From: an uncultured Candidatus Peribacteria bacterium
GTDB lineage: Bacteria; Patescibacteriota; Gracilibacteria; UBA1369; 2-02-FULL-48-14
Direction: 5' to 3'
Length of the DNA stretch: 64,000 bases
Assembly (NCBI GenBank): GCA_964360635.1
Contig: CAYHXO010000008.1
Coordinates: 2,772-66,771 of the forward strand
Position numbers and translations under genes: made by a program. Below the pieces are notes generated by a model. That model searched no databases. It saw only the letters and a list, made by a program, of their open reading frames with translations, and was not told the DNA's origin. Of the stretch, positions 3,372 through 60,206 are shown piece by piece. Numbering within the stretch: position 1 is the first letter of the stretch; every line of letters starts with the position of its first letter.

Positions 3372-4745
3372 TTAATTACGCTTAGGATTATGATGAAAAT
3401 CATCTACTTTGTCAATCGCAGGTTTTTCGTAATATAAAATTCCGTTCTCTTCGCGTTGAAGTTTGAATCCTGAGTAATCGGCAATATATTTGGAGGCATA
3501 GTTCTCGATTTTTATTTCTGCGCGAAGCGGTTCCGTAATAATCAGTGATAAGAGAAAAAGCATCTGTTTGCCTATGCCATGCCCTCTTGCCTCTCTTGCT
3601 ATCGCCCAGGTTAATAGATAAGCATCTTTGGAAAAGTCTGCCCGAATTGAGCCAACAGGTCGGCCCATGCACATTACTATAAATAATTTTCTATCTTTGT
3701 CATTCAATACTTTATTCAGCCACGAAATATGATTTTCAATCTCAATTATTTCAGTAGTATGGCAGAATTTTCTGACCTCTGGGTCATTCCGCCACTTTAG
3801 CAGTACATCAGCATCTTCGATTGTCGCCGGTCTAAGTTGTATACTGTTTTTTACTAATGCATTTAAGGAATCGATAACATTATCTCTTGCATTTTTCACT
3901 AATTTATAATCATTAATTACATGCTTTTCATCCATTAAATCAATGATGCTTTTTTCAAGGTCGGTTTTTTTATAAACGGCTTTGGTCAAACCTAATCGAT
4001 TTGTTACAAGTGGATCTTTCACGTTCAGACCCGGTTGATAGCTCAAAACTTTTCTACCTGACATAGTTGCCTCAAAAAGAGCCATTGAATTCATACCAAT
4101 AACAAGCTTGGCTTCTCGAATCAAGTCTGTTGTGTCAGATGTTGTAATCTCAATGTCCAAGTTTTCGAACTTGTTAAGATTTTTTGTTCGCGGATGCATT
4201 TTAACTTTAATTTTCTTCTCAATTCCAAGATTTTTAAAAGCATCAACAAAGTCGTTTAAAATTTCAATTTCATTAAGACCTATGTTATTTTCAAGCTCGG
4301 TAAAGGGTTGGCAAAAAAATACAATCGAGTTTCCTTCATCCTCAATTTTTTTAAATTTATCAAAATAGGGATTTCCAGTCACGGAAATTTTTTCAGGGTC
4401 AAAGCCGGCCTCCATCAAATCAATTTTGGCAATGTCGTCCATTACAAAAATATAATCCGGCACTGCGTCTTTGAAGCGCACTTCATAGTTTACCCATGAG
4501 TCCAGAACCGCCACACTTTTAATCCCGATTTTTTTCGCTGCTCTAACAAATCTTTTATCTAAACTTTCATACGATGCACTTGTTCCAACTACGACGATAA
4601 AAGCGTTTTTTATGGCATTTTCAATCTCATCGTCACTTAAATGATTTTTAAAAACCTCACAATTTAACTTGGCCGCAACAGCTGCGATTGCATTGTATCC
4701 GCCAAGATCTTCCGCGGAAAAAATAAACTTATTATTTTCTTTCAT
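3372..4745 (-). CDS. Two-domain protein: N-terminal GT-B/Rossmann-like domain (tentatively PseG-like UDP-sugar hydrolase) fused to a PseH-like GNAT acetyltransferase
   Basis: 457 aa. Residues about 305-457 carry IQLRPATIEDADVLLKWRNDPEVRKF and ARGHGIGKQM (GNAT, PseH-like). Residues 1-300 carry MHPRTKN and LVIGMNSMALFEATMSGRKVLSY, which look GT-B-like. The N-terminal assignment is weak. Confidence 0.55.
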   Translation of the reverse strand: MKENNKFIFSAEDLGGYNAIAAVAAKLNCEVFKNHLSDDEIENAIKNAFIVVVGTSASYESLDKRFVRAAKKIGIKSVAVLDSWVNYEVRFKDAVPDYIFVMDDIAKIDLMEAGFDPEKISVTGNPYFDKFKKIEDEGNSIVFFCQPFTELENNIGLNEIEILNDFVDAFKNLGIEKKIKVKMHPRTKNLNKFENLDIEITTSDTTDLIREAKLVIGMNSMALFEATMSGRKVLSYQPGLNVKDPLVTNRLGLTKAVYKKTDLEKSIIDLMDEKHVINDYKLVKNARDNVIDSLNALVKNSIQLRPATIEDADVLLKWRNDPEVRKFCHTTEIIEIENHISWLNKVLNDKDRKLFIVMCMGRPVGSIRADFSKDAYLLTWAIAREARGHGIGKQMLFLLSLIITEPLRAEIKIENYASKYIADYSGFKLQREENGILYYEKPAIDKVDDFHHNPKRN

Positions 4746-24907: not shown

Positions 24908-26448
24908 AATCAGCTTTTACATGGGTCCAAGCAAATTATATGGCCTGTTTTTTCGCGATTTTTGTTGGAATCGTTATGCTTGCTCCACAAATTATTTTTA
25001 TTATAGAATCCGGCGATTTATATCAAGGAATTTATATTTTAGAGAGCGATGCTGAAGTACATTACCTTGCTAGAATCAAAGAATTTGTTGATGGCAACGG
25101 GCCTGGAAATCCATACATTTATGATTTTAAAAACAATGTCCCAACTACTTTTTTTACATATAGCGAGTGGATACTTGCACTTCCATCTATTGCATTAGGT
25201 GTATCTGTTCCAAATATGAATCTAATATACAAATTCATCCTGCCTGCTTTATTATCGCTCATTATTTATTGGTTTTTAATCCGACTTGAATTCAAGAAGG
25301 GATACGCATTGGCTGGTGTATCAATGATTATGTTTGGCAACGCGATGTTCTATCCGGAAAGTCTATCGGCATTTTTAAGATTAGATCCTATTTTCACTCA
25401 ATTTTCACTCTTCGCACGTCCTGTTAATCCCGAACTGAGTTCAATTTTTTTCTTTGTATATCTTCATATTCTTTTGTCATCGTTACAACAAAAAAGCTGG
25501 AAATGGATAATCGCGCTTGGAATCTTATTCGGAACTACATTTTATATATATTTCTATACTTTCACTTTTCTTATTGCATTAAATGTTACATTTATTGGGA
25601 TTCTATCGATTTCAAAACAGTACAGTCAAGCGCTTAAAATAAGCACGGCAACATTTATCGGATTTCTGATTGGAGTGCCTGTAATAAATGAGCTTATTCA
25701 GTTAAACAGCCATCCATATTTTATTGAACTAAGTCGAGCACTTTCAGTTACAAATTCACGTTTACCGGTTATTGGTATCACTCATATTATTTTGTATATT
25801 ATTTTTCTCATCTACTTCAAAAAAACCGAAAAAACACCTCAACTTTATTTATTACTGGCTGTATTCACTGCCGGATTTGTTGCGACAAATCAGCAAATTA
25901 TTACAGGAAGAGTGATGCATGAGGGACATTATCTTTGGTATTTTATTAGTCCTATTGTATGTGTAATTTTTCTAACAATCATACAAGCTTTTTTAAAAAA
26001 AAGATGGAAAATTATTAGTAATACATTAATATTTAGCTTAATCATTACACCTATTTTATTTAGTATATTTACTCAATATTCATCTTATAAATATTGGGTA
26101 AAAGAATATCAATCACATCAAGTATATGGGCCTATTCTTGCGTGGATAAATGAAAATACTCCTCAGGAATCCGTTATCATGGCAAACGATGCACTTTCAA
26201 ATTTAATACCAATTTATACGGGTGCAAATGTTGTATGGCAACGCTATGCTGATACTTATTTAATGGAATTCAATAGGTTATATCTAAATCCCGAACGTTT
26301 GCTGGAAAATGATCTAATAAGCGACTACCGCCTAGATTATTTAATTTGGGATAAAGAGATAAATGCAGATTGGACTATTCCTAAATCCGGATTAGATCTT
26401 CTCTTCAAAAATGATAGATTTGAGATATATTCAATTGCAAATAAATAG
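24868..26448 (+). CDS. Large polytopic membrane protein, putative GT-C-fold glycosyltransferase
   Basis: 526 aa with at least 10 hydrophobic segments. Acidic first-loop motif ESDAEVHYLARIKEF and a soluble C-terminal region of about 100 aa. The start may be 24892 (MVAKIK). Either start overlaps the AsnB-like gene end. The GT-C call is inference. Confidence 0.5.
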   Translation: MVINHFPNMVAKIKSAFTWVQANYMACFFAIFVGIVMLAPQIIFIIESGDLYQGIYILESDAEVHYLARIKEFVDGNGPGNPYIYDFKNNVPTTFFTYSEWILALPSIALGVSVPNMNLIYKFILPALLSLIIYWFLIRLEFKKGYALAGVSMIMFGNAMFYPESLSAFLRLDPIFTQFSLFARPVNPELSSIFFFVYLHILLSSLQQKSWKWIIALGILFGTTFYIYFYTFTFLIALNVTFIGILSISKQYSQALKISTATFIGFLIGVPVINELIQLNSHPYFIELSRALSVTNSRLPVIGITHIILYIIFLIYFKKTEKTPQLYLLLAVFTAGFVATNQQIITGRVMHEGHYLWYFISPIVCVIFLTIIQAFLKKRWKIISNTLIFSLIITPILFSIFTQYSSYKYWVKEYQSHQVYGPILAWINENTPQESVIMANDALSNLIPIYTGANVVWQRYADTYLMEFNRLYLNPERLLENDLISDYRLDYLIWDKEINADWTIPKSGLDLLFKNDRFEIYSIANK

Positions 26449-49034: not shown

Positions 49035-49080
49035 AGCTAAGAATCTACCAGATCAGATTGGCTTAAGCAAGCCCGTTCAC

Positions 49081-50121
49081 TTAAATTATGAACTCGGCCA
49101 ATGCTGATAATTCTCCCATTTGTTTTTCACTCATATCAAATGGAATTGCATGTGAAAATTCCATCAGTTTTTTATATTCACACTTCACCCCATTTCTATT
49201 CAAAAATAGTATTTCATTTCTACCCATATATTTTGGCAAAAGTTTATCATTTTTTGACCATAAAATATTTACATCAACATCAGCTAGTTTATCCAAGGGT
49301 AGTTCTTTCCTCTCTGGATTAAAAACCCAATCCAAAAAAACTCGTGCGGAATCAGGTACGCTTCTAACATAATTATGAAAATCTGCATGATCCTGATCTC
49401 CATACATCAAGCCATTATATTCTTCATGGCTTACAGCTAAACTTTCTTTTGTTGCATACCTCAAAATTGCAAGAGCAACATCATTTTTGACCGCCCATAA
49501 AAATTCTGGCTTGAATGGGCCGAATGCTTCATCAGTACCAGGCATCATTCCGGTAATTTTTTTTAAATTAAAATCTCCTTGTTCTTCCATCAGTCCACGA
49601 ACAAATTCCCATGCGGCAATATATCCCATAGAATGCCCCATCACTGTAACATCGCCATTTAAGTCACCATTTGATACAAATCTATTTGCCAGACGCTTTG
49701 CATCGCCAATTGCATCTCTAAAACCTGTAGTGGAGGCAGAATTTTTCATTGCATAATCTCTAGTGCCACGCCCTTGTATATTTGGGAAAATTATTGATGG
49801 ATTCTTCGCTCCATTTTCTTTCAAACCTTTTATCAAAATATCTAAAAAATCCCCACCTAACATTGCAGAGGTTTCTCCCCAGCCAGGGAAACAAACAATT
49901 GTTCGATCAGGTCCTATTGTAAAATCATTTCTCAAAATTAAATCCACTCGATCTCTAGTAGAAAACTTAGTCGCCTCAACATCATTTTCAATTTGATACT
50001 GGTCAATTACAAATTGGATTGGGCCATTGGCTCTATATTCAAGACCTGAACCGGGACTATAATATCCACTCGGTGATTTTGATGAAGGGTCGTAAGCTGT
50101 CCAGTGCTGATCTAAATTCAT
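49081..50121 (-). CDS. Alpha/beta hydrolase (lipase/esterase-like)
   Basis: The track ORF starts with TTG at 50271. The first 50 residues look non-protein-like, so I moved the start to MNLDQHW. GxSxG nucleophile motif VTVMGHSMGY. Confidence 0.55.
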   Translation of the reverse strand: MNLDQHWTAYDPSSKSPSGYYSPGSGLEYRANGPIQFVIDQYQIENDVEATKFSTRDRVDLILRNDFTIGPDRTIVCFPGWGETSAMLGGDFLDILIKGLKENGAKNPSIIFPNIQGRGTRDYAMKNSASTTGFRDAIGDAKRLANRFVSNGDLNGDVTVMGHSMGYIAAWEFVRGLMEEQGDFNLKKITGMMPGTDEAFGPFKPEFLWAVKNDVALAILRYATKESLAVSHEEYNGLMYGDQDHADFHNYVRSVPDSARVFLDWVFNPERKELPLDKLADVDVNILWSKNDKLLPKYMGRNEILFLNRNGVKCEYKKLMEFSHAIPFDMSEKQMGELSALAEFII

Positions 50122-50216: not shown

Positions 50217-50251
50217 TGTTGTCAACACTCTGACAACGCAATTTTGATCTG
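50217..50251 (+). promoter_or_regulatory. Composite motif TGTTGTCA-N7-GACAAC-N6-TTGATCTG, copy A (upstream of the RHH gene)
   Basis: Read directly: TGTTGTCAacactctGACAACgcaattTTGATCTG. It contains the inverted repeat TGTTGTC/GACAAC(g). The same blocks occur with the same spacing at 59243-59277. Confidence 0.45.
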
Positions 50252-50298
50252 GAAACACAAGTTACTTTCAAAAGATCTAATCATTCCTATCCACAATA

Positions 50299-50646
50299 AT
50301 GACTGTAAAATCTTCTACAAAAAATATGCAAAAAAAATCCTTAAATCACTTCATAACATTGAACAATAAGAAATATATTTATTCAATGAAAAAAATAGAT
50401 ATGAAATCTACTCATTTTGAATGTGACGCCGCAAATATTTCTCAACCATTTTTGAATGAGGGTATTCCCAATCTTTTAATAGACCTTCCAAATTTGATTC
50501 TAGCCGAGAAAGAATATAAGGAAAAACAAGAAGCAGTAATTAGATTTAGGGTTACACTTGAGGATAAAAAACTAATCGAAGAAAAAGCAGGGAAGTGTGG
50601 ATTTAAAACTGTTTCAGATTACTTAAGAGAAGTTGCGCTTAAATAA
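50299..50646 (+). CDS. Small protein with C-terminal ribbon-helix-helix (CopG/Arc/MetJ-like) DNA-binding domain
   Basis: 115 aa. The C-terminus AVIRFRVTLEDKKLIEEKAGKCGFKTVSDYLREVAL fits the strand-helix-helix pattern. The N-terminal 75 aa or so are unrecognised. Confidence 0.5.
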   Translation: MTVKSSTKNMQKKSLNHFITLNNKKYIYSMKKIDMKSTHFECDAANISQPFLNEGIPNLLIDLPNLILAEKEYKEKQEAVIRFRVTLEDKKLIEEKAGKCGFKTVSDYLREVALK

Positions 50647-59171: not shown

Positions 59172-59242
59172 CTAGTTTTTTGTAGTTGAGTTGGTGACAA
59201 AATGTCACGAGTTGAACCTACTAAGTTTTTGATAGAGATAAC

Positions 59243-59277
59243 TGTTGTCAGCCCTTCGACAACAGGAAATTGATCTG
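59243..59277 (+). promoter_or_regulatory. Composite motif TGTTGTCA-N7-GACAAC-N6-TTGATCTG, copy B (upstream of the Bro-N gene)
   Basis: Read directly: (C)TGTTGTCAgcccttcGACAACaggaaaTTGATCTG. Here the inverted repeat is a perfect 8+8 bp, CTGTTGTC-N8-GACAACAG. Confidence 0.45.
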
Positions 59278-59348
59278 TTAAATGGAATCCTTATTTGTCA
59301 TATTCCAATTTGGAAATCAAAATCTCAACGTATTTTATAAAAATTATT

Positions 59349-60206
59349 ATGACAACAAAAATTGCTTTGTTCGGCGGGAAGAAAATTAGAAAAACTATGC
59401 ATCAAGATGAGTGGTGGTTCTCGATTGTTGATGTTATCGAAGTATTAACAGATAGCGCAAAACCGAGTGTTTATTGGAGTGTCATGAAGGCTCGTGTTAA
59501 AAATGAAGAGGGATCCCAGTTGTTTACAATTTGTAAACAACTCAAACTTGAAGCTTTGGATGGCAAAAAATATGAAACCGACTGTGCCAACACCGAAGGC
59601 ATCTTCCGCATTATTCAATCAATTCCTTCTCCAAAAGCTGAACCTTTCAAACGTTGGCTGGCTAAAGTTGGATATGAGCGTGTGCAAGAAATAGAAAATC
59701 CTGAACTTAGCGCAAATCGAACTCGAGCCATCTACAAAGCCAAAGGATACAGCGATGACTGGATAGAAAAAAGAATTCGCGGAATCGCCATCAGAGAAGA
59801 ATTAACAGATGAATGGAGAAATCGTGGAGCCGCATTCGACGATTACGAAATTCTAACTGCAGAGATTTCCAAAGCGACTTTTGGAGTAACTCCTCGTTCA
59901 TACAAAAAAATGAAAGGCCTCAAGCGCGAAAATCTTAGAGATCACATGAATGATTTTGAACTAATTTTCAATATGCTTGGTGAGCGTTCCACAACAGAAA
60001 TTCATCGAAGTGAAAATTCGAAAGGTGTACCAAAATTACAAGAAGACGCAAAATTCGGAGGTGACATTGCCGGCGGTGCAAGAAAAAAGCTTGAACAAAG
60101 ACTCGGGCGATCAATAATATCGACAGAAAATTTCCTTAAAGGTCTTCAAAAGCATTCTCCCGAATCAAAAATTCCCAAGCAAATAAAGCCACAGCGGAAA
60201 CAATAA
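59349..60206 (+). CDS. Bro-N-domain protein (phage antirepressor / DinD-like)
   Basis: The track ORF begins with TTG at 59295. I moved the start to ATG (MTTKIALFGG). IRKTMHQDEWWFSIVDVIEVL is Bro-N-like. KAEPFKRWLAKVGYERVQE and the following helical region resemble DinD/antirepressor C-termini. Confidence 0.5.
   Translation: MTTKIALFGGKKIRKTMHQDEWWFSIVDVIEVLTDSAKPSVYWSVMKARVKNEEGSQLFTICKQLKLEALDGKKYETDCANTEGIFRIIQSIPSPKAEPFKRWLAKVGYERVQEIENPELSANRTRAIYKAKGYSDDWIEKRIRGIAIREELTDEWRNRGAAFDDYEILTAEISKATFGVTPRSYKKMKGLKRENLRDHMNDFELIFNMLGERSTTEIHRSENSKGVPKLQEDAKFGGDIAGGARKKLEQRLGRSIISTENFLKGLQKHSPESKIPKQIKPQRKQ

Follow-up and report, generated by a model that had tools for sequence, protein, structure and literature searches.

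A conserved operator-like palindrome upstream of hicAB, Bro-N and ComEC-type genes in Candidatus Peribacteria

Two intergenic regions 9 kb apart on a contig of an uncultured Candidatus Peribacteria bacterium (CAYHXO010000008.1) share a short composite motif, an inverted repeat followed at a fixed distance by a third conserved block (box 3), and the question they raise is what such an element does in front of the genes that follow it. The stretch analyzed here, called the window throughout, is the whole 64,000 nucleotides (64 kb) in which both copies lie. To our knowledge, transcriptional control in the Candidate Phyla Radiation (CPR; Patescibacteria) is almost uncharted, these bacteria having very few regulators and not being culturable alone. 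We find that the motif is conserved in related genomes at five loci, that it behaves like the operator of a transcription factor, a familiar class of element, and that it is most likely not the operator of the ribbon-helix-helix (RHH) protein encoded next to one of its copies.

The motif and its family in Candidatus Peribacteria

The two copies in the window, both located by pattern search and model scan, are composed as follows.

50217–50255, plus strand: motif copy A, reading TGTTGTCAACACTCTGACAACGCAATTTTGATCTG over 50217–50251, with left arm TGTTGTCA (50217–50224), a 6-nt centre, right arm TGACAACG (50231–50238), a 5-nt A/T-rich spacer, box 3 TTGATCTG (50244–50251) and trailing GAAA.
59243–59281, plus strand: motif copy B, reading TGTTGTCAGCCCTTCGACAACAGGAAATTGATCTG over 59243–59277, with left arm (59243–59250), centre, right arm CGACAACA (59257–59264), spacer GGAAA, box 3 TTGATCTG (59270–59277) and trailing TTAA.

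Reading the sequence at both sites bore out what an initial annotation of the window had reported, two exact copies with identical spacing. With up to three mismatches allowed, the 22-base pattern matched the window twice, at A and B only, and none of 100 dinucleotide-preserving shuffles of the window gave any match; a covariance/sequence model of 16 copies scored the two at 48.7 and 48.0 bits, and the profile scan returned only A and B in 64 kb. Shuffles, collection scans and the model scan of the window together reject a chance match, in keeping with the annotation's view that the motif is too specific to be one. The third-best model match (21.9 bits, E ~0.007; 25454–25496, minus strand, ttGTTGTAAcgaTGACAAAA) lies within a membrane-protein gene, has the wrong spacing and is probably due to chance.

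Of the intergenic gaps in the window, about seven exceed 100 nt, and the copies occupy two of these, in keeping with the scarce non-coding DNA described by the annotation. Local alignment scores of the flanks of A against those of B, left and right, fall within the shuffled range; the shared unit is therefore only ~35–39 nt long, and a larger shared repeat or miniature inverted-repeat transposable element (MITE) is rejected. A generic repeat, common and lying within coding regions too, is likewise contradicted by the two copies per 64 kb, and the many copies, arrays and larger shared unit of repetitive extragenic palindromes (REPs) or MITEs were not found, with ~1–2 strict matches per metagenome-assembled genome (MAG) and unrelated flanks. 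The inverted repeat itself is real, but its description as a perfect 8 + 8 bp in copy B has to be corrected to 7 bp (TGTTGTC/GACAACA), or nine pairs if the flanking C/G is counted; in copy A it measures 7–8 bp, and the centre is 6–8 nt.

We then followed the motif beyond the window. Collections were scanned with a degenerate but still strict pattern, which makes the copy numbers per genome lower bounds and for which we estimate a chance expectation of ~0.5 matches per collection. The degenerate pattern gave five matches in the genome collection, four of them in Candidatus Peribacteria MAGs, and two in the metagenome collection. Several matches were judged to be chance and set aside: one from Synergistales within coding sequence (L013; fetched loci are given by L numbers), one from a metagenome without coherent open reading frames (ORFs) under genetic codes 11, 4 or 25 (L017), and four on viral contigs, all coding and without the box 3 context, so that a viral origin is rejected. 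Further copies with conserved arms were located by synteny and not by pattern (L019, L021, L024, L025, L027, L028, L029 and L030). Pattern, synteny and model together yield 18 distinct copies at five loci.

Locus (i), upstream of hicAB: window copy A, with orthologous sites in L014 and L005/L006, variants in L021 and L030, and a decayed site in L007.
Locus (ii), upstream of Bro-N: window copy B, L019, L006 and L021.
Locus (iii), upstream of a HerA/TraD/CedD-like ATPase gene, after a weakly PilT-like ORF: L012.
Locus (iv), upstream of a ComEC-type metallo-beta-lactamase (MBL) gene: L015, L024, L025 and L027, and the distant L028 and L029.
Locus (v), upstream of a HEPN gene: L018.

The consensus of the 18 copies is TGTTGTCA-N6-YGACAACA-RRWWW-TKNAYCTG-(T/G)(T/A)AA. 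Six core pairs show hardly any variation in the arms, unlike the innermost and outermost pairs and the 6-nt centre; box 3 (TKNAYCTG) is retained in the window's subgroup and absent from the distant L028 and L029. All 18 copies face a same-strand gene whose start codon lies 43–105 nt downstream, and the palindrome upstream of the MBL gene persists down to ~60% protein identity (L028, L029). The linked genes have to do with DNA, their domain matches being PF00753/ComEC-like, DUF87/HerA, TraD and CedD-like, weakly PilT-like, and Bro-N/DinD-like. The conservation upstream of orthologous genes that the initial annotation had proposed as a check was thus found in related MAGs, and since the motif is non-random, conserved and oriented to the downstream gene, the small regulon with a common cis-regulatory element that the annotation suggested is a reasonable reading. 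Since L024 shares a sequencing run with L003, which carries the window's sequence, the organism of the window probably has at least three copies. A literature search, which did not include the content of a paper on Patescibacteria LexA, found no paper describing this motif.

A further near-perfect palindrome, TGTTGTCGgaccggTGACAACA, lies inside murA in L025 (3318–3339; also in L026), where it encodes AVVTGPTTL. Neither L015 nor L027 shares this DNA; the palindrome is unlikely by chance, yet we treat it as a coincidence.

A putative operator of a host regulator

Insertions and deletions on either side of the motif end 0–11 nt from it and leave it intact. On its left, the Bro-N insert begins 0–2 nt before the motif, and a 70-nt insert and a 1.1-kb insert (a 346-aa gene) lie directly beside it; on its right are a deletion in hicA and, in L021, L029, L024 and L027, extra genes directly after the motif. 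The motif is under constraint, its orthologous copies staying in place as the intergenic DNA around them changes, and such edge-respecting events are consistent with purifying selection in a streamlined genome. Canonical terminators (a GC-rich stem followed by T6–7) stand directly upstream of the motif in L028, L029 and L024, which places it in the downstream unit.

What is conserved is the sequence of the arms. Among 16 copies no compensatory pair was found; in the set of 18, both partners differ at two pairs, no more than shuffles give (175/500), while one-sided changes in the arms remain uncompensated. Judged from these alignments, it is arm sequence and not structure that is conserved, as expected for the recognition of half-sites. 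The geometry of CRP/FNR-type sites is found in the 18 aligned copies, which read TGTTGTCA-N6-TGACAACA with a TGTCA-N6-TGACA core: the 22-bp two-fold symmetry and the 5-bp cores 6 bp apart are those of CRP/FNR sites. The core TGTCA/TGACA is also identical to CooA half-sites, CooA sites being TGTC(G/A)-N6-CGACA (PMC545781). The outer bases of the arms (TGT...ACA) and the asymmetric box 3, on the other hand, have no counterpart in CRP/FNR sites.

We therefore tentatively read the motif, at a probability just short of even, as the putative double-stranded DNA binding site of a dimeric Peribacteria host regulator with CRP/FNR-like 22-bp geometry. A dimeric transcription factor would bind the palindrome as an operator or upstream activating site, and the adjacent asymmetric element on the promoter side (the A/T tract and TKNAYCTG) would act together with it. 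The motif would then mark the 5′ edge of the hicAB, DinD-like Bro-N, ComEC-type MBL, HerA/TraD-like ATPase and HEPN units, and one signal would govern them, plausibly in the control of DNA uptake, starvation or DNA damage. Protein binding, the family of the factor, the signal and the choice between activation and repression are what we infer from sequence, not what we observed. The ComEC-type gene and the DNA-translocase-like ATPase next to a PilT-like ORF make a DNA-uptake or stress regulon an attractive possibility.

At hicAB, the distal palindrome would be combined with a proximal promoter that is probably repressed by the antitoxin. This recalls E. coli hicAB, where a distal promoter P1 with a CRP-S site is activated by Sxy as part of the competence regulon and a proximal promoter P2 is repressed by HicB (PMC11594946). 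The likeness to CRP-S competence sites and to the P1–P2 arrangement lies in the motif upstream of a ComEC-type gene and in the distal element at hicAB; it is a likeness between sites, and the host is a CPR bacterium far from proteobacteria. Sequence conservation, orientation, position, the associated gene set and a separate proximal operator at hicAB are direct observations.

Several points weigh against a host operator. No candidate regulator emerged, CRP/FNR, LexA and XRE being unseen in the Pfam lists of the fetched loci. Consensus scans and inspection by eye failed to place a −35/−10 pair consistently with respect to the motif in the different copies. Box 3, missing in L028 and L029, is not accounted for by contacts with sigma70. 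At hicAB and at the toxin–antitoxin (TA)-containing MBL loci there are separate proximal promoters, and the palindrome would have to exert its effect there from a position near −85 or still farther upstream. The known copies number only ~3 per genome, and the theme of the regulon is mixed with mobile toxin–antitoxin genes that could have simply landed there. Finally, the palindrome of L015 is duplicated with an identical centre around a two-gene module, which a plain operator does not predict.

A candidate sigma70 promoter within the motif itself (−35 nTGACA in the right arm, 16–17 nt, then a TAAAAT-like hexamer past box 3) fits the Bro-N, MBL and HEPN copies but fails the hicAB-type, L012 and L025 copies. 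Downstream of copy B a plausible core promoter is predicted, a TTGTCA-17-CAAAAT candidate located 18 nt past the motif, whose −35 block is conserved in L019, L006 and L021 by sequence comparison.

Modules, breakpoints and an orphan antitoxin beside the motif

The features adjoining the two copies in the window are the following.

49081–50121, minus strand: strain-specific 346-aa gene with weak alpha/beta-hydrolase similarity, directly left of copy A and divergent from it.
50253–50369, plus strand: 3′ remnant of hicA, its last 38 codons (KHKLLSKDLIIPIHNNDCKIFYKKYAKKILKSLHNIEQ*), recognized by frame translation against the intact HicA of L014/L005.
50299–50646, plus strand: orphan HicB-type antitoxin gene, with a C-terminal RHH domain, NikA-like (PF21983, 40 bits).
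59173–59242, no strand assigned: strain-specific 70-nt insertion between the aroE stop and copy B, seen by comparison with L019/L020.
59295–59323, plus strand: sigma70-like promoter candidate TTGTCA-17-CAAAAT, from a consensus scan.
59349–60206, plus strand: Bro-N/DinD-like gene, whose last 71 nt overlap lspA in antisense.

At copy A, hicA precedes the RHH gene in the syntenic L005/L006, L007 and L014 and, in another genomic context, in L030, which identifies the RHH gene as a HicB-type antitoxin gene; HicA of L005 matches PF07927. In the window, a deletion that starts 1–4 nt past the motif, with an AAA microhomology at the junction, removed the 5′ half of hicA together with the native hicAB promoter/operator. 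The initial annotation was right that the product is an RHH protein, but the 115-aa start it used lies inside the hicA remnant; the likely true start, from the usual start of the family, is 50326 (106 aa). The RHH protein is found identical on groundwater contigs (Hainich H52), and searches of PDB sequences with the RHH and Bro-N proteins returned nothing useful. The 346-aa gene is absent at L005, L006, L007 and L014. Two strain-specific inserts, this gene and the 70-nt piece, thus each lie directly left of a copy, and they are mutually unrelated.

The promoter of the epimerase gene (window 49035–49070, minus strand; L005 9648–9676) is sigma70-like, with TTGCTT or TTGTCA, 17 nt, and TGgTAGATT. 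With a −10 element that ends 7 nt before the ATG, its mRNA would have no leader or almost none. Similar-looking promoters precede hicAB in the relatives and the MBL gene of L028.

At copy B, the Bro-N gene sits between the converging aroE and lspA of Peribacteria. The window, L019/L020, L006 and L021 have it, and L005 and L007 lack both gene and motif; the orthologues of copy B in L006, L019/L020 and L021 start 0–2 nt past the aroE stop. The 70-nt insertion of the window holds a palindrome of its own, GTGACAaaaTGTCAC, at 59194–59208. Homologues of the Bro-N protein number more than 8000, and the highest-ranking ones, from Parcubacteria, Komeilibacteria, Nitrospinae, Nitrospirae and others, are 75–82% identical, an unusually strong conservation with a patchy distribution, and its best PHROG is without known function. 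In Peribacteria the ORF lacks a 3′ end of its own and reads 71 nt into lspA in antisense.

At the MBL locus, L024 (1474–1987) and L027 (3488–4001) carry a RelB/DinJ-ParE/YafQ-type toxin–antitoxin pair as an insert that separates the MBL gene from the conserved leader. The pair is absent from L025 and L015, and the stop of the toxin gene overlaps the MBL start codon.

Breakpoints of this kind raise the question of whether the motif is a site of recombination. The 8-6-8 palindrome would then be a tyrosine-recombinase-like core site, or a hairpin recognized by HUH enzymes with box 3 as a cleavage or accessory element, and modules would be gained or lost beside it, an explanation that we consider unlikely. 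The breakpoints do hug the motif: the Bro-N insert, flanked by AGAT, and the other left-hand inserts abut it, the hicA deletion starts within a few nt of its right end, and the extra genes of L021, L029, L024 and L027 follow it directly. The motif also moves with hicAB to a new context in L030, and conserved arms with a variable centre and a 3′ box at a fixed distance are the layout of an HUH substrate too. In L015, two palindromes with an identical centre flank a ~1-kb module of two ORFs.

Two flanking copies, however, accompany only one of ~7 insertions and are wanting at those of Bro-N, the 346-aa gene, the TA pair, L021 and L029. The right end of the Bro-N insert falls within the 3′ end of a gene without a second site, and looks like illegitimate recombination followed by trimming. 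Moreover, recombination between loci would be blocked by their unlike centres, and no recombinase, integrase, relaxase or Y1 transposase gene stands beside any copy in the Pfam lists of the window and fetched loci. The palindrome is stable 5′ of the core MBL gene over deep divergence, and in a compact genome insertions survive only in a few intergenic regions.

The two palindromes of L015 are 22 bp long (2876–2897 and 3933–3954), share the centre acgcgc and lie in direct orientation ~1 kb apart. The module between them comprises two ORFs without annotation, of 115 and 179 aa, both read from the opposite strand, and the upstream copy is degenerate and without box 3.

Comparison with known sites cuts both ways. 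With dif/pdif, attC and HUH sites (REP/RAYT, IS200/IS605 ends, the origin of transfer oriT) the motif shares short inverted arms, a 6-nt centre and a 3′ box at a fixed distance, and presence/absence-polymorphic TA or accessory modules adjoin it, with one duplication around an insert. It differs from them in its arms of 8 bp instead of 11–13 bp, in centres that vary, in the lack of a second site at most insertions and in the lack of a nearby recombinase, relaxase or transposase. REPs occur in hundreds of copies against ~3 per genome for the motif, and relative to integron attC R boxes its GTT...AAC order is reversed. A cassette-capture system of CPR genomes may use the palindrome as its attachment or core site, small accessory modules (toxin–antitoxin pairs, DinD-like genes, unknown ORFs) being gained and lost at a small set of fixed palindromes through site-specific or hairpin-directed recombination. 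This is suggested by the identical-centre duplication of L015 together with the breakpoints clustered within a few nt of the motif; we give it a slightly lower probability than a recombination site at large.

A different proposal, that of the initial annotation, is that the adjacent RHH protein is the regulator: the orphan HicB-type antitoxin would bind the palindrome, regulate its own gene, and control the Bro-N gene and the other copies in trans. In its favour, the motif is linked to hicAB in two genomic contexts, the RHH gene was kept after independent losses of hicA in the window and in L021, as would fit domestication as a regulator, and after the deletion in the window the motif is the sole conserved element upstream of the RHH gene. 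Antitoxins that regulate other promoters are known, MqsA being an example. The arrangement also has the look of Arc/Mnt operators in the immI region of P22, with an inverted repeat 5′ of an RHH gene and a second copy at an antirepressor-like Bro-N gene.

The relatives speak against it. In five lineages (L005, L007, L014, L021 and L030) hicAB has a sigma70-like promoter with conserved repeats just before the start codon, ...TTG...(T)GTAGCC(A/C)T-N7-TATATAAT(G/A)TAGCTA..., a sequence unlike the motif; these proximal repeats were looked for in the window and are absent. The motif lies ~100 nt upstream of hicA in the relatives and ~60 nt upstream of the −35 of that promoter, so that an autoregulatory RHH operator overlapping or abutting its own promoter is not what the motif represents in any of the five. 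This separate, promoter-embedded repeat is strongly conserved along with the RHH beta-strand VIRFRV, which is invariant across homologues, whereas the arms of the motif vary in L030 and L021A and the site is decayed in L007. Other CPR groups commonly encode RHH homologues, whereas only Peribacteria-like genomes yielded the motif; its linkage to hicAB is younger and less widely conserved than the palindrome upstream of the MBL gene; and the same palindrome stands upstream of HerA-like and HEPN genes without an RHH gene nearby. Unlike Arc/Mnt and antitoxin operators, then, the motif also occurs at loci unrelated to RHH, while the HicB-type RHH of the relatives has another operator within its promoter. 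The adjacent RHH protein as regulator is thus not supported, and neither is a P22 immI-like logic, the RHH gene being the antitoxin gene of a hicA–hicB pair; we consider control by this protein improbable.

The loss of hicA with retention of the RHH gene occurred twice independently, in the window, where the promoter was deleted, and in L021 (1024–1404), where promoter and operator were kept. An orphan antitoxin kept in a streamlined genome suggests a function beyond neutralizing the toxin.

RNA hairpins, damage response and genomic setting

The palindrome could also act as RNA or as a single strand, as a hairpin of the 5′ untranslated region or for processing, as a protein-binding RNA operator, or as a weak terminator or insulator. 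Every copy is predicted to form a stable hairpin of 7–9 bp, with energies from −8.8 to −13.9 kcal/mol and z-scores between −1.4 and −3.2, a simple terminator scan flags copy A, several copies start 0–2 nt past an upstream stop codon, and some have a T-rich tail as intrinsic terminators do. In L021A two pairs are compensatory, and G-T wobbles on the plus strand result from several of the one-sided changes.

Against this, covariation for the hairpin is not significant, and an Rfam scan gave no match at gathering or E-value thresholds, so that a known RNA family is rejected. The sequence of the stem is conserved across unrelated loci, unlike that of ordinary terminators, about half of the copies lack a T-run after the stem (AGGAAATT...), and canonical terminators already precede the motif in three loci, as described above. 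Copy A and copy 1 of L015 follow divergent genes and have nothing to terminate; an intrinsic terminator of the upstream gene is accordingly rejected, and a role of the hairpin in general seems about as improbable as control by the antitoxin.

Least probable among the readings weighed here is an SOS-type operator, at which a damage-responsive repressor of the LexA-like or XRE/COG2856 type would bind. The linked genes are typical of damage regulons (DinD-like, toxin–antitoxin, HerA-like helicase/ATPase, nuclease-type MBL), and LexA motifs diverge strongly between phyla (PMC8565304), which counts for it. No lexA, recA, uvr or polymerase gene, however, is linked to any copy in the window and fetched loci, and a paper citing the Patescibacteria LexA study places it with direct-repeat motifs and not with palindromes (PMC7739468). 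Sigma-54 promoters, a NifA upstream activating site with a −24/−12 promoter, boxA/nut-like antiterminators, parS, DnaA boxes, integron attC R boxes and MOBP-type nic sites (ATCCTG) were compared by eye and dismissed, sharing few bases with the motif or having the wrong spacing or context.

The window, part of a groundwater Candidatus Peribacteria genome, has ~35% G+C and consists mostly of one very large glycosylation/polysaccharide gene cluster. Positions 1–48000 hold ~45 consecutive genes of glycosyltransferases, sugar epimerases/dehydratases, aminotransferases, methyltransferases and asparagine-synthase-like proteins, a surface-glycan cluster exceptionally large for a small CPR genome.

As the putative site of a dimeric host regulator, the motif would connect toxin–antitoxin modules with a ComEC-type nuclease, with an ATPase like those of DNA translocases and with a DinD-like gene, and would give a concrete entry point to a possible regulon of DNA uptake or stress in these bacteria. 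The pairing of two promoters at hicAB, which combines a host signal with control by the antitoxin, would then appear older or more convergent than has been thought. Should the motif be a recombination site instead, it would point to an unrecognized route of gene gain in streamlined genomes, and cassette capture, if true, would be a recombination mechanism undescribed for Patescibacteria.

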